Notes under the pieces: model-generated | Seen by the model: only the letters and a program-made list of their open reading frames with translations | What the model was told of the DNA's origin: nothing | Database searches by the model: none | Origin: a virus | Strand: one strand, 5' to 3' | DNA length: 23,414 bases | Virus genome (UHGV): UHGV-0114356 | Made by a program: the position numbers and the translations under genes | In this document: in pieces, positions 1-11,547 of the stretch | Layout: the number at the start of each line of letters is the position of its first letter | Position numbering within the stretch: position 1 is the first letter of the stretch

Positions 1-101
1 GCGTCACGCCGAGCGCTTTCACTTCCTGCTCTACCCAATCCATATACGGAGCCGGTTGCGGTATTTCCGTTAATAGAGATAGTTCCGGTGCTATAAATCA
101 T
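1..101 (-). CDS. hypothetical protein, 5' part only (starts at 101, runs off the window start)
   Basis: ATG at 99-101 on the minus strand with AGGAG 5 nt upstream (rc of 102-115 = atttaggagttgtt). Open frame continues to position 1: MIYSTGTISINGNTATGSVYGLGRAGSESARRD... Gly/Thr/Ser-rich; too short to assign a family. Confidence 0.35.
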   Translation of the reverse strand, partial: MIYSTGTISINGNTATGSVYGLGRAGSESARRD

Positions 102-606
102 AACAACTCCTAAATTTAGACAACATGAAGCCCGGAGAGGTATATAACCATCACCAGAAATAATTTCTGAATTGGTTTTTAATACATGTTGGGCAACGCC
201 AGTGTTGGCATAGCTATAGTTGTATCAAATGCCATTGACCACCCACCCAAATAATAATTGCCGACTACTTTATTCCTTTCTGCTCTGACATTCCCACCTG
301 TCATTACAATTCCTTTATACCTAATATTTCCGTAACCACCAACGTGTCGACAGTTAGCCCCGGTATAAACAATCTGGCAAAATTCATCACCAATATTCAG
401 GTTCGCATTGGCGATATTTATTGTCCCATCAAAAATGAATGGCTTCGTGCAAGTAAGAAGACGTTTGCGTTGACGATTGGTTTATTCAATCCATCAACTA
501 AAATACCATGTAAACGAATTGCCATAACATTTCCCACTTTATTTTACTTACTCAACACAACAAGTATATTAAAATTGAACCTTGTCAACAACACAAAGGA
601 GTCCCA

Positions 607-837
607 ATGAAACTCGCTCTAATTATGCTGCCATTATGTCTGTCCCTCACTGCATGTGGTAGTGGCCTGAATACCGGTAAACCGAATTCCGGCGTTATCC
701 CAAAACCCTTGGATTGGGATAACGGTTCTTTAATTTATGATACCGAAAAGCTTCCAATGACTGGGCAATGGTGCCATGAGATTGATCATGAATACCGACG
801 AATTGGTTCACCTTCAAACTGTGTAGCTAACTACTAA
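607..837 (+). CDS. small secreted lipoprotein (76 aa); candidate superinfection-exclusion lipoprotein
   Basis: ATG 607 preceded by AAGGAG (596-601, 5-nt spacer). N-terminus MKLALIMLPLCLSLTAC is a signal peptide with a lipobox (L-T-A-C); mature part begins CGSG and has two further Cys. AT-rich, opposite orientation to the tail operon, followed by a terminator. Confidence 0.6.
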   Translation: MKLALIMLPLCLSLTACGSGLNTGKPNSGVIPKPLDWDNGSLIYDTEKLPMTGQWCHEIDHEYRRIGSPSNCVANY

Positions 838-870
838 AAGAAACCCCCCGCGCTAAGCGGGGTTGTTTTT
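838..870. terminator. bidirectional intrinsic terminator between convergent lipoprotein gene and J
   Basis: GC stem ccccgc (846-851) / gcgggg (857-862) with loop gctaa, flanked by an A-rich run on the 5' side and ttgttttt on the 3' side; T-tracts on both strands. Confidence 0.6.
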
Positions 871-1480
871 ATCCTGAGAATGAACCAGAACCGCGCGTCA
901 CAATGACGGTCGGTGAATTTATATAAGCCCCCATACTATTTTGAGCGGATACCTTAATTTTAACTGTAACGGCACGACTGGTTACAGGTGATGAGTGCAT
1001 TACAAGACGCTCGTTGCCGTCCATAGGAAGGTTTTTTTCTGAACCTTCAATGTTTATCGTGCAGCCACCAAAACCTTTAACGTTTGCCATAACGCAGATA
1101 TGTCTTCTATGTGCTGCACTTGATGTGTCATTGTATGTAATTGTTTTTTCGAGTACGCCATCATTTAACCTGCTAACGTCAGATCCTGTGTACATATTCG
1201 CAACGTCTCCCACAAAACTGGTAGCTTCCACAGTACCCGTGAATTTACCGCTTGTTGCTTGTATCTCACCAGTAAATCTACCACCACTAGCGTATACTAT
1301 ACCTCTCACAGTTACATTATTGAATTCAGCATCCCCAGCTTTATTTAACTTCCAACCAGCAGAACCAGCTGCATAGTTGTTGGACTGGATATAGTTGCCG
1401 ATTTTGGCGTTCTCAATGGTGCCGTCCTGGATGAAGCTGGCCCGGATGAATGTCTGCCCGTTCTGGATCACGAACGGCAA
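869..1480 (-). CDS. J: host specificity protein J (tail tip/central fibre), C-terminal fragment 3 of 3, out of frame with fragment 2
   Basis: Translation PFVIQNGQTFIRASFIQDG... is collinear with the lambda gpJ C-terminal region (lambda ...MFVAQGNQIFMNDVFLK...). The listed start is an in-frame TTG; this frame is open upstream to a stop at 1640-1642. Confidence 0.7.
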   Translation of the reverse strand: MPFVIQNGQTFIRASFIQDGTIENAKIGNYIQSNNYAAGSAGWKLNKAGDAEFNNVTVRGIVYASGGRFTGEIQATSGKFTGTVEATSFVGDVANMYTGSDVSRLNDGVLEKTITYNDTSSAAHRRHICVMANVKGFGGCTINIEGSEKNLPMDGNERLVMHSSPVTSRAVTVKIKVSAQNSMGAYINSPTVIVTRGSGSFSG

Positions 1481-6097: not shown

Positions 6098-6868
6098 TTA
6101 TCTGGAAAAAAGCACGGTGGCTGGATAGCCCCCAAAATCAAGGGTCGCGGTATTAGGCTCTGCCAGCCCGGCACCAAACCGCTTACGGCAGTCACTCAGG
6201 CAGCCGCCGCACACATCCAGCGCCGGGTCAGCGACAGGATTACCCTTCGCATCAAAATACGCCGTGCCGTTGTAGGTGCATCCATCGCCGCTCCGGTACT
6301 GCCCGCGTAGCGCCCATTCGCAGAGCGAGGTGATTTGTCTGGTTGGGATAACAAGCCCCTGCAAGTCTGCGGGGCTACTGAGTGACCAGGTAACTACCTC
6401 GTCGTCTTCGGAGGTTTTGGTGTCAAGCCAGAAGGTCTGAAGTGTGAACATTGACGAATCAGCTGTAGGGTTTGCGCCACCAGGGTAATTCACAGCATCG
6501 AGATAGACCGCATAGGTATCGATAATGCTCACCCTGGCGTTAACCATGTCCTTAAATTGGAGGCACAGCGCCGTGATATGACCGTCGAGGTTTGAGACGC
6601 TGAGAGACGGCTCCGCCGCCTGGTCTGTTGAAAGCTCCAGGCCTGCTACCTGAAACGGCCAAAAATCGTAGGTATTGCCACCGAATACGATTGGCTTTGG
6701 TCCGAGCTTTTCTTCATCACCATTGGCAGCGTCGATCTCTTCCGGTGTATGGGGGAAAGGTGCGTAGTGGAAACGGTGAATACCGCCACTGAACTCTGAG
6801 GCGTCAACTTCAACCAGGCGTACTCTGCCACCCGGTGCCAGCATCGCCGCCTGATCGACTAATGCCAT
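6098..6868 (-). CDS. L: minor tail protein L
   Basis: 256 aa; blocks YLDAVNYPGGANP and CLSDCRKRFG correspond to lambda gpL (FLDAVNFVNGNSYADP, CSKCLSGCKFRNN). Start ATG overlaps the M stop (TAATG). Confidence 0.85.
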   Translation of the reverse strand: MALVDQAAMLAPGGRVRLVEVDASEFSGGIHRFHYAPFPHTPEEIDAANGDEEKLGPKPIVFGGNTYDFWPFQVAGLELSTDQAAEPSLSVSNLDGHITALCLQFKDMVNARVSIIDTYAVYLDAVNYPGGANPTADSSMFTLQTFWLDTKTSEDDEVVTWSLSSPADLQGLVIPTRQITSLCEWALRGQYRSGDGCTYNGTAYFDAKGNPVADPALDVCGGCLSDCRKRFGAGLAEPNTATLDFGGYPATVLFSR

Positions 6869-7218
6869 TATGCATACACTCCGTAAGCCCGTTTGATGGT
6901 GAACGTCAATTCAGCAAACTTGCTGCTGATCTGATTTTTCCGTACGGAATCGGCGACTACCCGATAAAGCCCCTTCTCTTCTCCCGGCGGCGTGATGATG
7001 AAGGCCTTCACGGTATGAGCCAGGAGGAAGTCGCGCACTGCGTTTACCTCAGACTCACTGCCAACGTGTTTCATTGGCACCTGGATCGCCGTGGAGTTGA
7101 TGCCGTTCTCGGCCACCTGCTCATAGCCATCACCGAACTGCGCAGCGCGCACCGTTTGACTATATTCAATCGCCCCAGCACCGAGCTGCGAGCGCCAGCT
7201 GTATGTTTCAACTGCCAT
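6868..7218 (-). CDS. M: minor tail protein M
   Basis: Internal ATG at 7216-7218 with GGAG RBS (rc of 7219-7230 = tatggagtaaat) gives MAVETYSWRSQ...; FGDGYEQ matches lambda gpM FGDGYSQ. The longer track ORF (start 7269) runs through the upstream terminator, so it is not used. Confidence 0.75.
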   Translation of the reverse strand: MAVETYSWRSQLGAGAIEYSQTVRAAQFGDGYEQVAENGINSTAIQVPMKHVGSESEVNAVRDFLLAHTVKAFIITPPGEEKGLYRVVADSVRKNQISSKFAELTFTIKRAYGVYA

Positions 7219-7229
7219 ATTTACTCCAT

Positions 7230-7255
7230 AAAAAAAGCCCCGCGTATGCGAGGCT
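7230..7255 (-). terminator. intrinsic terminator after the moron gene, immediately upstream of M
   Basis: Minus-strand hairpin agcctcgca-ta-cgcggggct (7236-7255; one mismatch, one G-U) followed by a 7-T tract (plus-strand A run 7230-7236). Confidence 0.55.
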
Positions 7256-7305
7256 CTGTGTCGGTTCAAAGTATGGGCGATACTTTGTAATAAACTGAGA
7301 ACGGT

Positions 7306-7698
7306 TTAACTTCCATTCATTTCGACAAGCCGGTAATCAGTTTTCCCATCCTTGTCTTCAATGCATTCAGCTCTGAATTTCTGCTCAAGACCAAATTTGT
7401 TTTTAGCGCTAAATTCCTGCGTCGCGTAGAACTTACCGTCATTGCCGAGCCATCTGTTAGAGCCAAACGCCGACATATCCAGGGTGCTTTTATTGATCAC
7501 TGACTTTCTAACGTAAGCTTCACAGGCATTACGAAGTTCATCTAATTTTTTATCTGCAAGTTCCTTGGCTTCTTTTTGCTTTTTTTCTTGCTCGGTTGGT
7601 TTATTAACCACCGCTGCAACAAAAATCACAACAAGAAGAAGCAGCAACAGCCCAATGGTTCTTAGGATCTTCTTGATTATTTTATTTAACACAATCAT
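7306..7698 (-). CDS. membrane-anchored moron protein (130 aa), function unknown
   Basis: N-terminal basic stretch then one hydrophobic helix (ILRTIGLLLLLLVVIFVAAVV), a Lys/Glu-rich linker and a C-terminal domain with two Cys. Visibly AT-rich relative to flanking H and M; own terminator downstream; sits where lambda has no gene. Confidence 0.6.
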   Translation of the reverse strand: MIVLNKIIKKILRTIGLLLLLLVVIFVAAVVNKPTEQEKKQKEAKELADKKLDELRNACEAYVRKSVINKSTLDMSAFGSNRWLGNDGKFYATQEFSAKNKFGLEQKFRAECIEDKDGKTDYRLVEMNGS

Positions 7699-7748
7699 CC
7701 CCTGATCATTATGGTTTTCAACATATTAACCAGGGGGTGACGTAAACA

Positions 7749-10700
7749 CTACCTGCCTTTGCTGAAGTTGTAGATCATGCCACCCGGTTTAAGCTGTTTC
7801 TGAACTACCTGCAGTGCGGCATTCTGCATTTCCTCGGCAAGCGCGCGCCCCATGGCATCACCAGAACTGGAAGTTTGCGTTGTAACCGAACCACCAGCAT
7901 CTACGTTAACAGTGGTATTGATAATCGGGGCCATCCCGCCGCCACCCTGGGCACGTACCCCCAAGCGCCCGGCAGAGTCCCGAGTTAGGGGCATGATTGC
8001 TTCAGCACCAGCCTCTGCGAAGACGCCGCCTTTCGCAAACTTAGATGCGCCCTGGAAGGTGAAATGCTGAGGAGTGTCGTAAACACCGTTCACATATTTA
8101 CTGAGGCCAGGAGAGTCATAGACACCACCTTTAGCATTGAAGGTTACGCCAGCAGCGGCGTTTGCATATGCACCACCAGGCGTGCTGCCACCGCCACTGC
8201 CACCGCTTATCCAGCCCATCGCAGCCTGCACCGCATAGGCAACCATCAGCCTGTTTGTCACCTCAACAATCATCTTCAGCATCGATTCGCCGAATTCTTT
8301 TATTGAGGCTTTTCCCGTCGTCATTAAGCTGGTTAGCATGTCAGATAGACCTGTCAGCGTCGAACTAGCCACGTTCTTCACTGCGTCGTAGGTGTTGGTA
8401 GCGGCATCCAGATATTCATTCCATCCAGCAACAGCCCCAGACTTCCAGTCGCCGCGCAGCTTATCCTCTTCAGAGTAATAATTTCTGAGGGCTGCCAGTT
8501 CTTTCTCATAGCCAGCATCATCAAGCTTACCACCACCGTTGAGCCAGCCTTGGCGGAGCTGAGCCTCTTCCATCATGCGCTGGCTCTGACGGCTGCTTAG
8601 GCCTGCGCTGCCTCGCAACGCTTCTGTCTTTTCCGACATCTGCGTGACGTATTTATTCGCCTGCTGCGCCAGGCCATTAATCTTCTGCTGCGCCTCTACT
8701 TCCTTGTTCTTCTGATCCACCACCTTGGCGGCGTTCAGAATGGCCTCACGGCTCGACAGTAGAGATTTCTCCTGGGCGGTCAGCGCTCGTGTTTTGGCAG
8801 CCTCATCCAATTCAGCAAAGCGAGATTGCTGTTTGCTGAATTCGGTATATCTGACCTGCGTCTCCCCAGTCTTGCGCAACGTTTCGAGTGTTTCAGTTAA
8901 CGTTCTGGCCTGGGCACGGTAGTTCTCAAGAGTGCGATCGCCAGCATCCAGCGTGGCTTTTGCCTCTTTGGTCTTTTTGGCTGAGTCTTGTGCAAGCTTC
9001 GAGACTGCGTCTCTTGATTCTCGACTTGTTCCGCCATCACCTTTTACGTTAGACCCTCGCGCTTCAGCCTCATAGTTTGCCTGTGCGTTAGGCGCAGTGA
9101 CGCGCTTCCAAAGCTCGTTATAGCGTTTTTTGTTCGCCTCAATCTCTTTGTCCGCTTCCGCTCCAGCCTTTTTCATTGCCTCAACGTCCATGCCGAGGAA
9201 ATTAGCCAGCGCACCGCCACCCGGGATTTTGTCTGCCCAGCCAGCGATGGTGCTGGTGAACTTGGCGTCCAGAGAGGTGATATTGAGGAACAAGTCTTTG
9301 ATCGAGGACTTAACCAGTTCGAAGATATCGATGATCTGGTTTCCCCAGGCGCGCACGGTAACCCCGATTTGACCGAAAATGTCGGAGGAGAAAGCTTTAA
9401 TCCCGTTCCACGCCTTCCCGATATTATCGGTGGCCTCTACAATTTTATTACTGCGATCCTCCATGGTGTCGGCAAAAAGCGTTATAGCTTCGTTTGCCGC
9501 TGCTGTTTTCCCCTTCGTTTTCTCCAGGGTAATGAGGTGCTTCATCATGGCTTCATCAACAAAGCCATATTGCTGGTTCAAGCTCGCCAGGGCTTTAATA
9601 GGATCGTTTGCCAGTCGTGAAAAATCCGCCAGCGCAGCCTTCGTATCCAGCCCTGCATCACCCATAGCCAGAATGGATTTGGCAATTTTGGTCATCTGGT
9701 CGGCGGTATACTTCCCGGTGTCGTTTAGTTGGACCAGGGTATCAACAGACTCAGCCAAAGAAGCACCAGCGTTATCAGCAACATCCTTTGCCGCGTCGTT
9801 CAGTTGCTGCATGGAGGAAAAGCCAGCCCCGCCCATCAAAATGAGCGATCTGGCAACATTGTCGAACTGCTGGGATGAACTGTAGGCAGCCCCAGCCAGA
9901 AGAGCCAGCAAACCCACCGAGCCAGCAATCGCAAGGTTAAAGGTATTTAACAGGCCACCCGCCCGCCCCAGCTTCTCCGCTGCCTCACTGGTGTTGTTAA
10001 GTCCTTCAGCAGCGTCACTTATGCCTGCTGCCGACTCGGATGTTTCTCTGCTCTCTTCGTTAAACCCAAACAATGCGTCCCGCAAAGCCTGGAGCATTGG
10101 GCCTAATCCACCAAAAGAATCCTTAATTTGCCCGCCTTGCTGGAGCAAGATCAGGAAAGGGGATTGGCCTCCAGCCAACTGTGTCGCGATATCGGTGAAC
10201 TGCGCCGGCAGAGTGCGCAGCGCGGCGCTGTACTGGCCAACGGAAATTCCAGCACGCCGGGCAGCAGCTTCCTGCCGGGATAGCGCCTCTGGCAGCACGT
10301 CAGCCACGCCAGAGAGCCGTTCACGCGTCTGGTTGAGGATGGTGTTGAAATGTTCGAACTGGGTGCCGTTAATGCGCCCCGCTTCGAAGTGTGCCACCAG
10401 CTGCGCATGCTGCTCGTCCAGCGAGTTGAATGCGCGGATCGTCGGGTCGATGGAGCCGAGAAGGTTTTTCAGCGCTGCCGACTGTTTCTCAGCAGCCTGG
10501 GTGGCTGCCAGTTCAGCCTGGGCCCGCATTGATGCCTCAGCGGTTTCACCGAGTTTTTGCCGGGTGTTATCCAGTATTGTCTGGTAACTCTTAAACTCCT
10601 CAGTATTGAGAAATCCCCCCGCATGGAATCTCTGCAAAGCAACCTGCTGGTCCTCGAGCTTTTCCAGCGCAATCAGCGTGGGGTTGATGTTCTCCAACAA

Positions 10701-10904
10701 TCCCTTCAGCGCAGCCTGCTGCTCTTTTGCCCCTTGGGCACCCTGCTTGCCAGCTTCAGCGCCGGCACGAAAAACACTGTTAAGGTCATCCGCTTTATCG
10801 ACAGCACCGGCCGCCGCCTGACCGAGTTTATCCAGCTCATTACTGGCTGTTTTCAGGTCAGAAACATCGGCCCGCAAAGTAATCGAGGCGATCTGGTCTG
10901 TCAT
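7749..10904 (-). CDS. H: tail tape measure protein
   Basis: 1051 aa, Ala/Gln/Glu-rich helical and repetitive, Gly-rich C-terminal part; AAGGAG RBS before ATG 10904; located between G-T and M as in lambda. Confidence 0.9.
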   Translation of the reverse strand: MTDQIASITLRADVSDLKTASNELDKLGQAAAGAVDKADDLNSVFRAGAEAGKQGAQGAKEQQAALKGLLENINPTLIALEKLEDQQVALQRFHAGGFLNTEEFKSYQTILDNTRQKLGETAEASMRAQAELAATQAAEKQSAALKNLLGSIDPTIRAFNSLDEQHAQLVAHFEAGRINGTQFEHFNTILNQTRERLSGVADVLPEALSRQEAAARRAGISVGQYSAALRTLPAQFTDIATQLAGGQSPFLILLQQGGQIKDSFGGLGPMLQALRDALFGFNEESRETSESAAGISDAAEGLNNTSEAAEKLGRAGGLLNTFNLAIAGSVGLLALLAGAAYSSSQQFDNVARSLILMGGAGFSSMQQLNDAAKDVADNAGASLAESVDTLVQLNDTGKYTADQMTKIAKSILAMGDAGLDTKAALADFSRLANDPIKALASLNQQYGFVDEAMMKHLITLEKTKGKTAAANEAITLFADTMEDRSNKIVEATDNIGKAWNGIKAFSSDIFGQIGVTVRAWGNQIIDIFELVKSSIKDLFLNITSLDAKFTSTIAGWADKIPGGGALANFLGMDVEAMKKAGAEADKEIEANKKRYNELWKRVTAPNAQANYEAEARGSNVKGDGGTSRESRDAVSKLAQDSAKKTKEAKATLDAGDRTLENYRAQARTLTETLETLRKTGETQVRYTEFSKQQSRFAELDEAAKTRALTAQEKSLLSSREAILNAAKVVDQKNKEVEAQQKINGLAQQANKYVTQMSEKTEALRGSAGLSSRQSQRMMEEAQLRQGWLNGGGKLDDAGYEKELAALRNYYSEEDKLRGDWKSGAVAGWNEYLDAATNTYDAVKNVASSTLTGLSDMLTSLMTTGKASIKEFGESMLKMIVEVTNRLMVAYAVQAAMGWISGGSGGGSTPGGAYANAAAGVTFNAKGGVYDSPGLSKYVNGVYDTPQHFTFQGASKFAKGGVFAEAGAEAIMPLTRDSAGRLGVRAQGGGGMAPIINTTVNVDAGGSVTTQTSSSGDAMGRALAEEMQNAALQVVQKQLKPGGMIYNFSKGR

Positions 10905-11547
10905 TATTTCGTCTCCTTGTGCATTACCTTGAGAGCCTCGCTTTCCATAATTTGAAGGTCAGCCATGCAGGCCGCCGCATCCTCAACCCCGTGTAACTCG
11001 AACATCCAGGGGAGAACGTTGTAATCAAGGCCGGTCGCCCCGCTCGCGCCGACTCGCCACTGGGTCGCCAGGGAAGAGAAGATGGTGAAAGACTTCCACA
11101 CAGAGGGCAGGATCCCCACCTCTTCCTCCACGTCCTCAGGCGTCAAACCAAAAGCGCTCAGCTCCGCGAGCGTCGGCCCCGGCGTATACAACGCTGCGGC
11201 GACCTGCCTCAGTTTTTTTCGCGGATACCCATAAGCTCTTTGGTGTAGGCCAGACCGATGCTGTCGAACGCGCGAGGATAGTTCTTCAGGAGGACAATTA
11301 CGTTATCGCGGGTGAACTCGTCAGGTAGTGCCCACCCCTCGACAATTTCCATGAGGTAGTCGGCCTGTGGCTCGATAGCATCCTTTTTACCTTCGGCGGC
11401 CTTTTGCAGCTTCTCGTCCATGGAGCGCAGCTCTCCCAGCGTCTTATGGCGGAAAGTGAACGTCAGCTTGCCGTCTTCGGCGCCAGCGCGCGGAATGCTC
11501 GCGGTCACAGAAAAAGTTGGGTTGGGGATCAGGGAAAATTTGGTCAT
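10904..11547 (-). CDS. tail assembly chaperone G-T fusion, made by -1 programmed frameshift (T-like C-terminal part 10904-11218)
   Basis: The -1 frame downstream of the slippery site is open from the G body through the 95-aa T-like ORF (...KKLRQVAAALYTPGPTLAELSAFGLTPEDV...LPSVWKSFTIFSSLATQWR...); the T ORF has no good start of its own (TTG). Arrangement as lambda G/GT. Confidence 0.6.
11209..11547 (-). CDS. G: tail assembly chaperone G
   Basis: ATG 11545-11547 with AGGAA RBS (rc of 11548-11560) gives MTKFSLIPNPTF... (113 aa), ending IREKN; acidic small protein directly after the major tail gene. The longer track ORF (start 11634) overlaps V and is not used. Confidence 0.7.
   Translation of the reverse strand: MTKFSLIPNPTFSVTASIPRAGAEDGKLTFTFRHKTLGELRSMDEKLQKAAEGKKDAIEPQADYLMEIVEGWALPDEFTRDNVIVLLKNYPRAFDSIGLAYTKELMGIREKN
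11212..11218 (-). other. slippery heptamer A-AAA-AAC for -1 ribosomal frameshifting (G to G-T)
   Basis: Minus-strand cgc-gAA-AAA-AAC-tga at the 3' end of G (plus-strand 7-T run 11213-11219); fits the X-XXY-YYZ rule and lies 3 nt before the G stop. Confidence 0.6.

Follow-up and report, generated by a model that had tools for sequence, protein, structure and literature searches.

Since the genes H and M abut in phage lambda, an open reading frame (ORF) located between their equivalents constitutes an extra gene, and the question raised by the locus described here is what such a gene encodes and what role it might serve. The DNA concerned, referred to throughout as the window, is a single stretch of 23,414 nucleotides from the viral genome UHGV-0114356, in which an AT-rich ORF intervenes between the tail tape-measure gene (TMP) and the M homologue of a lambdoid tail operon (Table 1). 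Tail-operon morons are a recognised source of both prophage protection and host conversion, few of them having a known function, and the locus represents a compact and well-delimited test case, with a fixed 5' leader, a fixed 3' terminator, and at least seven alternative exported cargos occupying this one site in a set of more than 100 related phage contigs. The reading preferred here, which is advanced tentatively and as something less than an even prospect, is that the ORF is a functional moron housed in a dedicated slot of an HK639-like lambdoid prophage, and that it codes for an exported envelope protein which would bring about the exclusion of superinfecting phages. Tail-operon morons encoding envelope proteins are already known; what is new is that this ORF is drawn from an uncharacterised, mostly phage-borne family, and the most interesting by-product of its analysis is the conserved architecture of the slot.

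Table 1. Features of the TMP/M junction in the window, with positions, strand and supporting evidence.
Feature	Position	Strand	Evidence or remark
Tail tape-measure gene (lambda H equivalent)	7749-10904	minus	Pfam TMP_2 2e-45, Tape_meas_lam_C 7e-20, phrog_24
Leader hairpin	7690-7744	minus	dG -22.6 kcal/mol, z -4.3
9-codon upstream ORF (uORF), MLKTIMIRG*	7695-7724	minus	read from sequence
Accessory ORF, 130 aa	7306-7698	minus	first residues MIVLNKIIKKILRTIGLLLLLLVVIFVAAVVNKPTEQEKKQKEAKEL; phrog_35526
Hydrophobic segment, residues 15-31 (IGLLLLLLVVIFVAAVV)	7606-7656	minus	sequence; preceded by four Lys/Arg
Lys/Glu-rich long helix, residues 36-66	7501-7593	minus	AlphaFold2 (AF2) models
C-terminal domain, residues 56-130	7309-7533	minus	one helix on a 4-stranded antiparallel sheet (predicted)
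Perfect 8-bp AT-rich inverted repeat	7267-7274 / 7280-7287		judged not significant
Intrinsic terminator	7230-7257	minus	10-bp stem (6 GC pairs), 4-nt loop, T7
M homologue (minor tail protein), 116 aa	6868-7218	minus	Pfam Phage_min_tail 1.8e-19

The upstream border of the slot is formed by the TMP gene, which encodes a protein of 1051 aa and ends with a TAG stop at 7749-7751, and the downstream border by the M homologue, followed in order of transcription by homologues of L, K and I. The initial annotation, made from the letters alone, had placed a 130-aa ORF at this junction and had remarked upon its AT-rich contrast with its surroundings; the coordinates were borne out, on the minus strand and with Pfam matches for both neighbours, as was the contrast, the ORF having a GC content of 0.397 and a GC3 of 0.42 compared with values of 0.544-0.558 and 0.59-0.64, respectively, for the five flanking tail genes (TMP, M, L, K and I). 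In both GC and GC3 the ORF consequently exhibits the base composition unlike that of its flanking genes by which a moron is recognised, and between window positions 1600 and 22000 no 400-bp bin other than that of the ORF is low in GC. Two candidate starts are available, an ATG at 7698 giving 130 aa and a GTG at 7692 giving 128 aa, the latter corresponding to the 128-aa hypothetical protein annotated by NCBI in the chromosome of E. coli ABWA45, which carries a prophage 100% identical to the window over positions 6800-8200; the entire window matches the best E. coli prophages to only about 94%. Comparison of the ORF with six homologues yielded dN/dS values of 0.05-0.15 at dS values of up to 1.9, confirming that it is a real gene under strong purifying selection.

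Some part of the window is matched by 5403 of the 5426 complete E. coli genomes, only 11 of which carry most of it, so that some segment within it is near-universal in E. coli. A second low-GC region (0.40-0.43) occupies window positions 1-1200, beyond the J-like gene, with small ORFs on both strands (344-610, 607-837 and 869-1480), and is probably another accessory region.

The comparison of the H-M junction across related prophages that the initial annotation had proposed was conducted on two sets of viral contigs. Eighty were fetched via M (≥89% identity), of which 63 held both slot borders; the slot measured 310-3772 bp and was in no case empty (0/63), the ORF being present in 23 of these contigs with near-identical M and other cargo in the rest. 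A set of 72 was fetched via the ORF, and in all 71 with a readable flank it lay downstream of a lambda-type TMP gene, usually as the first gene and at a distance from M ranging from about 60 nt to 2.4 kb. The other genes recorded in first position were mostly lipoproteins of five unrelated types (129, 138, 142, 153 and 162 aa), together with membrane proteins; a lipobox was detected in 27/63 and a hydrophobic N terminus in 48/63 of the first-position genes, which share the same leader. Cargo in second position comprised a Doc/Fic protein (Pfam Fic, 6e-12), Arc-like plus Ant-like genes and a 537-aa protein, the Doc/Fic and Arc/Ant-like genes fitting an accessory or competition locus. Neighbouring cargo also varied in the presence of the ORF, which is preceded by a 320-aa gene in the slot of E. 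coli 21AR0133 and followed by two small genes in that of E. coli H6. In phage HK639, whose TMP C-terminal 250 residues and M are respectively 91% and 96% identical to those of the window, the ORF is absent, and the slot holds three unrelated genes, led by one for a lipoprotein, with an annotated terminator behind them. Judged from these sequence comparisons, the slot is a variable site, specialised in envelope proteins, at which alternative genes are swapped.

The same comparisons bear upon the proposition that the ORF product serves in tail structure or assembly and is peculiar to this lineage of phages. Its location inside the tail operon after the tape-measure gene in 71/71 readable close-homologue loci is what would be anticipated of such a protein; against this, its restriction to only 23 of 63 phages with near-identical M, its replacement elsewhere by unrelated lipoproteins, and the occurrence of homologues outside tail operons (P0071, P0073 and phi644-2 gp46) are all at variance with a structural function, as are its signal anchor and conserved Cys pair, which are typical of exported proteins. 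A test for co-evolution between the ORF and the tape-measure protein was negative, the identity of the one being uncoupled from that of the other: in the related contig L005, the ORF is 95% identical though the TMP is only 42-55% identical. The variable occupancy and this uncoupling largely refute a structural role, which is left with a very small probability, and mark the ORF as mobile cargo. The initial annotation had held that homologues invariably present between H and M and bearing structural annotation would overturn its view of the ORF as a horizontally acquired moron; occupancy proved variable, and that view was sustained both by the comparison of the slots and by the existence of distant homologues in other contexts. 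It can be stated with high confidence that the ORF is an accessory, mobile and functional gene.

A different position in the tail operon is affected in the E. coli ABWA45 prophage (L001), where positions 10450-11199 hold an extra 250-aa hypothetical gene, lacking from the window, between K (C40 peptidase) and L; this may be a second cargo site of the operon.

The 3' border of the slot was found to be constant. The terminator, described in the initial annotation as a GC hairpin plus T7 private to the ORF, is a genuine and strong one (dG -16.1 kcal/mol, z -5.3) situated directly before the Shine-Dalgarno sequence (SD) of M (GGAG, 7224-7227), and every relative examined has at this point a GC hairpin with a cargo-dependent stem, after which come a T-run that does not vary, ATGGAG and the start of M. 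Being a constant border whatever the cargo, it belongs to the slot and not to the ORF, so that the transcription terminator with which a moron is expected to be furnished is present, but as the property of the slot. The AT-rich inverted repeat to which the initial annotation had also drawn attention is indeed present and perfect, but has been set aside as a functional element: about 0.4 perfect 8-bp repeats were estimated to arise by chance in the 650 bp scanned, a second such repeat was found in the same scan, single-base changes within it are uncompensated in relatives, and the other type of 3' untranslated region lacks it.

With regard to the protein itself, the initial annotation had proposed a single N-terminal transmembrane helix, a Lys/Glu-rich linker and a C-terminal domain with two Cys residues. 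The hydrophobic segment was readily identified, and membrane anchoring of the product is plausible from the sequence; as V26-A27-A28 also fits the -3/-1 rule of signal peptidase I, the segment could serve either as a signal anchor or as the core of a cleaved signal peptide. The putative linker corresponds to a charged helix in AF2 models, the C-terminal part of which carries C59 and is predicted to belong to the folded domain. Modelling with 20 homologues (pLDDT 87) returned helices at residues 2-31 and 36-66 and four strands at 80-127, and modelling of the domain alone with 32 diverse relatives raised the pLDDT to 93; the structure prediction recommended in the initial annotation thus gave a consistent helix-on-sheet domain. 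Its predicted fold, small and cystatin/NTF2-like, would be a generic one, and its recognisable motifs are C59, NKSTLD, FSAKNKFGLE and AxC112, the two Cys foreseen (C59 and C112) proving to be near-invariant in the family.

One helix packed on a curved antiparallel sheet, as in the predicted ORF domain, is also found in VirB8/TraE, DcrB, YpmB (PepSY) and cystatin/NTF2-like proteins, of which VirB8 and DcrB additionally combine an inner-membrane tether with a periplasmic domain in the manner proposed for the ORF product. A relationship with DcrB or VirB8 was set aside, the likeness being confined to the level of the fold. The inner-membrane subunit of a spanin (Rz-like) was likewise considered and rejected. 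Inner subunits of two-component spanins have an N-in/C-out topology and a mostly helical periplasmic domain, and are encoded in the lysis cassette with an outer-membrane lipoprotein partner. The C-terminal half of the ORF product is a predicted beta-sheet domain, which makes the similarity of architecture superficial; the gene lies between tail genes, outside the lysis cassette, with no embedded or adjacent lipoprotein gene to supply a partner, and has no Pfam match.

The family to which the ORF belongs was delineated by profile searches. The ORF matches phrog_35526, a family of unknown function, at 1.3e-77 over residues 3-130, and an exhaustive profile search returned 82 remote relatives at E ≤ 1e-3, in which the domain is almost always located at the extreme C terminus. 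A transmembrane or signal/hydrophobic segment precedes the domain in 62/82, and an N-terminal zinc ribbon is present in 16/82, most of these having a hydrophobic segment between ribbon and domain. The two Cys are conserved at 88% and 93%, beside PST-D and FSAKNxFG motifs, giving a family signature 'C..PST-D..FSAKNxFG..AxC' to which the ORF conforms in profile as well as in motif. All 32 aligned domains match phrog_35526 and 30 match phrog_29597, the domain family as a whole spanning four PHROG families, each of unknown function. The combination in relatives of a cytoplasmic zinc ribbon, a membrane segment and a conserved Cys pair places the domain outside the cytoplasm, and an extracytoplasmic location for the C-terminal domain is accordingly considered very probable.

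Apart from the Pfam Fic match of the second-position cargo, neither the ORF nor its remote relatives nor any alternative cargo had a meaningful match in Pfam (E ≤ 0.01) or NCBIfam, and PADLOC-DB (E ≤ 0.1) gave none for the ORF or five relatives. No PDB sequence matched the family profile at thresholds as lax as E = 10, Foldseek found no match at E ≤ 0.001 among PDB and viral models, megablast of the ORF region against isolated phage genomes returned nothing, and literature searches found no paper on the family. Against the same isolated phage genomes, tblastn gave weak matches only, to four records of three Burkholderia phages. The domain recurs in distant Burkholderia and Pasteurella phages and in metagenomic phage contigs, and yet is absent from Pfam, NCBIfam, PADLOC and the PDB.

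The genomic settings of the more distant relatives are varied. In the related siphophage L017, P0075 (127 aa; match to the domain profile at E 6e-16) is likewise located between the tape-measure gene and M, as part of a 5-kb island that also contains HicA, Arc and Ant genes, and ORF71 of Pasteurella phage Pm86 is directly upstream of its tape-measure gene. P0071 adjoins a P22-type arc/ant (immI) region and P0077 a terminase gene; the gp46 lipoprotein of Burkholderia phage phi644-2 stands alone in an accessory region, and P0073 belongs not to a tail operon but to an element that contains Rep3, SbcCD-like and ribonucleotide reductase genes. The island of L017 (5490-10395) comprises HicA/HicB-like genes, three Arc-like genes and one Ant gene, and elsewhere in the same phage (1257-2201) Phage_gp49_66, Sequestin and Tad2-like (anti-defence) genes lie between the tail chaperone and the TMP. 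Certain of the lipoproteins that occupy the first position of the slot, namely the 129-aa proteins of L103 and L170 and the 138-aa proteins of L140 and L169, carry NAKNSYGAY or GKNGFGAY plus a DPDSAKF motif, resembling the FSAKNKFG and NKSTLD of the ORF, a likeness that hints at remote homology between the ORF and these lipoproteins; hhalign comparisons of the ORF domain with the alternative lipoprotein cargos gave borderline E values of 0.02-0.03.

The closest functional precedent is provided by gp15 of phage HK97, the first moron to be described, a member of the YebO family that confers superinfection exclusion (PMC3594210). This small inner-membrane protein blocks genome injection in a tail-dependent manner, and is thought to act at the inner membrane on the incoming tail or TMP (PMC3594210). 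The gp15 gene and the ORF alike are insertions of low GC content that adjoin the tape-measure gene of a lambdoid tail operon and are followed by a terminator, and in both cases the product is small with one N-terminal membrane segment. The two differ in that gp15 lies upstream of the TMP gene and the ORF downstream, and in that the ORF product has a predicted folded periplasmic domain (80 residues) and a Cys pair, which gp15 lacks; no similarity of the ORF to YebO/gp15 was detected, and exclusion, demonstrated for gp15, is proposed for the ORF product by analogy.

Comparable features are shared with two other groups of envelope proteins. Cor (phi80/N15/HK022), Llp of T5 and Bor of lambda are outer-membrane lipoproteins that block FhuA or give serum resistance; like the ORF product they are small and exported, and are encoded by accessory genes in or next to tail modules, and those of Cor and Llp are functionally linked to phage entry. 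Alternative cargos of the slot are lipoproteins of this general kind, whereas the ORF has no lipobox at its N terminus, no sequence similarity to these proteins and no Pfam match, which sets it outside the Cor/Bor/Lom/Llp class. The lactococcal Sie2009-type proteins and Ltp of TP-J34 are prophage-expressed, are tethered to the membrane by the N terminus with the C-terminal domain outside the cytoplasm, and prevent the injection of DNA; Ltp, which has helix-turn-helix repeats, targets the tape-measure protein. The ORF product resembles them in its combination of membrane tether and extracytoplasmic C-terminal domain; the hosts are by contrast Gram-positive, the folds unrelated, and no homology was detected.

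On the preferred reading, the exported ORF product has a cytoplasmic N terminus and an external C terminus, is either anchored in the inner membrane or released into the periplasm, and displays a presumably disulfide-bonded helix-on-sheet domain on a charged helical stalk. Its target could be a tail-tip or tape-measure component of an incoming phage, or else some factor of the host periplasm or inner membrane on which that phage depends, and DNA entry would be blocked after adsorption, thereby protecting the lysogen or infected cell by superinfection exclusion. The gp15 precedent, the location of the Pm86 and L017 homologues beside a TMP gene and that of another beside a P22-type immI region were counted in favour of such a role; the lack of PADLOC, Pfam and NCBIfam matches, the generic fold and the location of P0073 outside a tail operon were counted against it. 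Exclusion by the ORF product, mentioned in the initial annotation as a frequent role of membrane morons in tail operons, is, on the strength of these analogies, judged a distinct possibility of appreciably less than even likelihood. If correct, it would reveal a new family of periplasmic exclusion proteins and, in the slot, a natural panel of swappable specificities for siphophage DNA crossing the periplasm.

The same gene class, that of late-operon morons encoding envelope proteins, also includes factors of lysogenic conversion such as lambda Bor and Lom, and the ORF product might similarly confer a host benefit unrelated to phages, be it in serum resistance, adhesion, stress tolerance or susceptibility to colicins or antibiotics. 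Consistent with this, many alternative slot cargos are lipoproteins, and the 70 close homologues of the ORF, the named ones mostly from Enterobacter, have hosts (Enterobacter, Escherichia, Salmonella and Leclercia) that include clinical isolates. A conversion factor is nevertheless held to be unlikely: the domain family, with its four PHROG families, is found overwhelmingly in phage contexts, including those with Rep3/SbcCD-like/ribonucleotide reductase and terminase neighbours, and no similarity was found to Bor, Lom or other known conversion proteins.

Exclusion of superinfecting phages by a lysogen presupposes that the cargo is expressed in it, a matter on which the 5' leader bears. In the window, the predicted hairpin is formed by pairing of a 5' arm at 7727-7736 (CCCCUGGUUA) with a 3' arm at 7699-7708; the SD GGGG (7699-7702) lies inside the 3' arm, and the outer stem pairs bases around the AUG. 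A conserved leader of the form CCCCTGGTTA..ATG..AATCA(A)GGGGATG precedes ORF-type and lipoprotein-type cargos alike, and the same fold was predicted for 41/41 distinct leaders of related loci whatever the cargo, with a median of -21 kcal/mol and a z of about -6 relative to mononucleotide shuffles; from its distribution the predicted hairpin is, like the terminator, a possession of the slot and not of the ORF. RNAalifold applied to the leaders recovered an invariant 4-bp core only, with no double compensatory change, a weak signal due in part to a 1-nt indel that misaligns the hairpin arms, and the hairpin consequently rests on per-sequence folding. The leader also contains the uORF, which ends with its TGA stop running into the main start codon (ATGA); homologues of 139 aa have a single additional A, by which the uORF is brought into frame and lengthens the N terminus of the protein.

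Two classes of leader could be distinguished by their potential promoters. In the first, represented by fifty loci, GTTACA-17-TAT(C/T)AT or a near variant of its -10 was called promoter-like by the promoter scan, the commonest form of this GTTACA class scoring 9/12 with a predicted start inside the hairpin loop. The second, represented by forty-three loci including the window, has TAGTGT-17-TAATAT, which scores 6/12, its -10-like TAATAT lying in the window at 7723-7728 and its -35 position being occupied by the tape-measure stop codon; the scan found no usable or convincing sigma-70 site in the window leader. The one promoter-like site that it did propose, at 7721..7694, was discarded because its -10 overlaps the start codon, so that the transcript could not encode the ORF. 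A transcript directed by the leader -10 would begin in the hairpin loop and so would be devoid of the inhibitory arm.

Taken together with the folding predictions, these features raise the possibility that the leader may restrain translation of late read-through transcripts by fold-back inhibition, the mechanism of IS10 and IS50, where transcripts reading through from outside are poorly translated. In both settings the first gene has its ribosome-binding site and start codon paired with a segment lying upstream; the likeness of the slot leader to these elements is one of sequence and folding only, and its internal promoter is weak in the window class. Fold-back inhibition, if genuine, would explain how genes in a highly transcribed late operon come to be reserved for the lysogenic state.

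The lack of a convincing promoter in the window leader makes expression in the lysogen conjectural, which counts against exclusion, and the ORF may be made only in lytic growth. According to this alternative, translation would occur from the late tail transcript by coupling to TMP termination, which would melt the hairpin, and the product would act in the periplasm of the producing cell, where it might prevent secondary infection or modulate enzymes of the wall or of lysis. The geometry of the window class is compatible with such coupling, the TMP stop being about 5 nt before the hairpin base and 12 nt before the CCCC core, and the leader class having no good promoter; the overlap of the uORF stop with the ATG points the same way, a stop/start overlap being the usual sign of translational coupling, as does the presence of the homologue P0073 in a non-tail context, beside replication and nucleotide-metabolism genes. 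Weighing against it, half of the related leaders have the promoter-like GTTACA-17-TAT(C/T)AT with a start in the hairpin loop, which is suggestive of independent expression, the gene is outside the lysis cassette and without a lipoprotein partner, and morons expressed in the lysogen are classically recognised by a terminator placed immediately behind them (PMC3594210). A lytic-cycle role is therefore assigned a low probability.

Returning to the preferred reading of a moron serving exclusion, the slot is framed at its 5' end by a predicted leader hairpin in which the first cargo gene has its ribosome-binding site and start codon base-paired, and at its 3' end by an intrinsic terminator abutting the ribosome-binding site of M, with alternative cargo genes swapped between the two by recombination and the first of them nearly always encoding an exported envelope protein. 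A bolder version, offered as a speculation that is improbable as a whole, would have the TMP/M junction of HK639-like phages as a purpose-built exchange site, in which the leader silences the cargo on the late read-through transcript while a short loop-started transcript escapes, so that cargo would be made only in the lysogen; the PST-D/FSAKNxFG/Cys-pair domain would then be a new and widespread periplasmic phage-exclusion module that recognises an incoming tail-tip or tape-measure component.

The leader hairpin was also observed in the related loci L003-L006 and in about 100 IMG/VR loci. In four contigs with slots of about 603-605 bp (L149, L150, L164 and L166), the first ORF is a 41-codon remnant of the 162-aa lipoprotein (MMVNKVFTVAG...), apparently a decayed cargo behind an intact leader.
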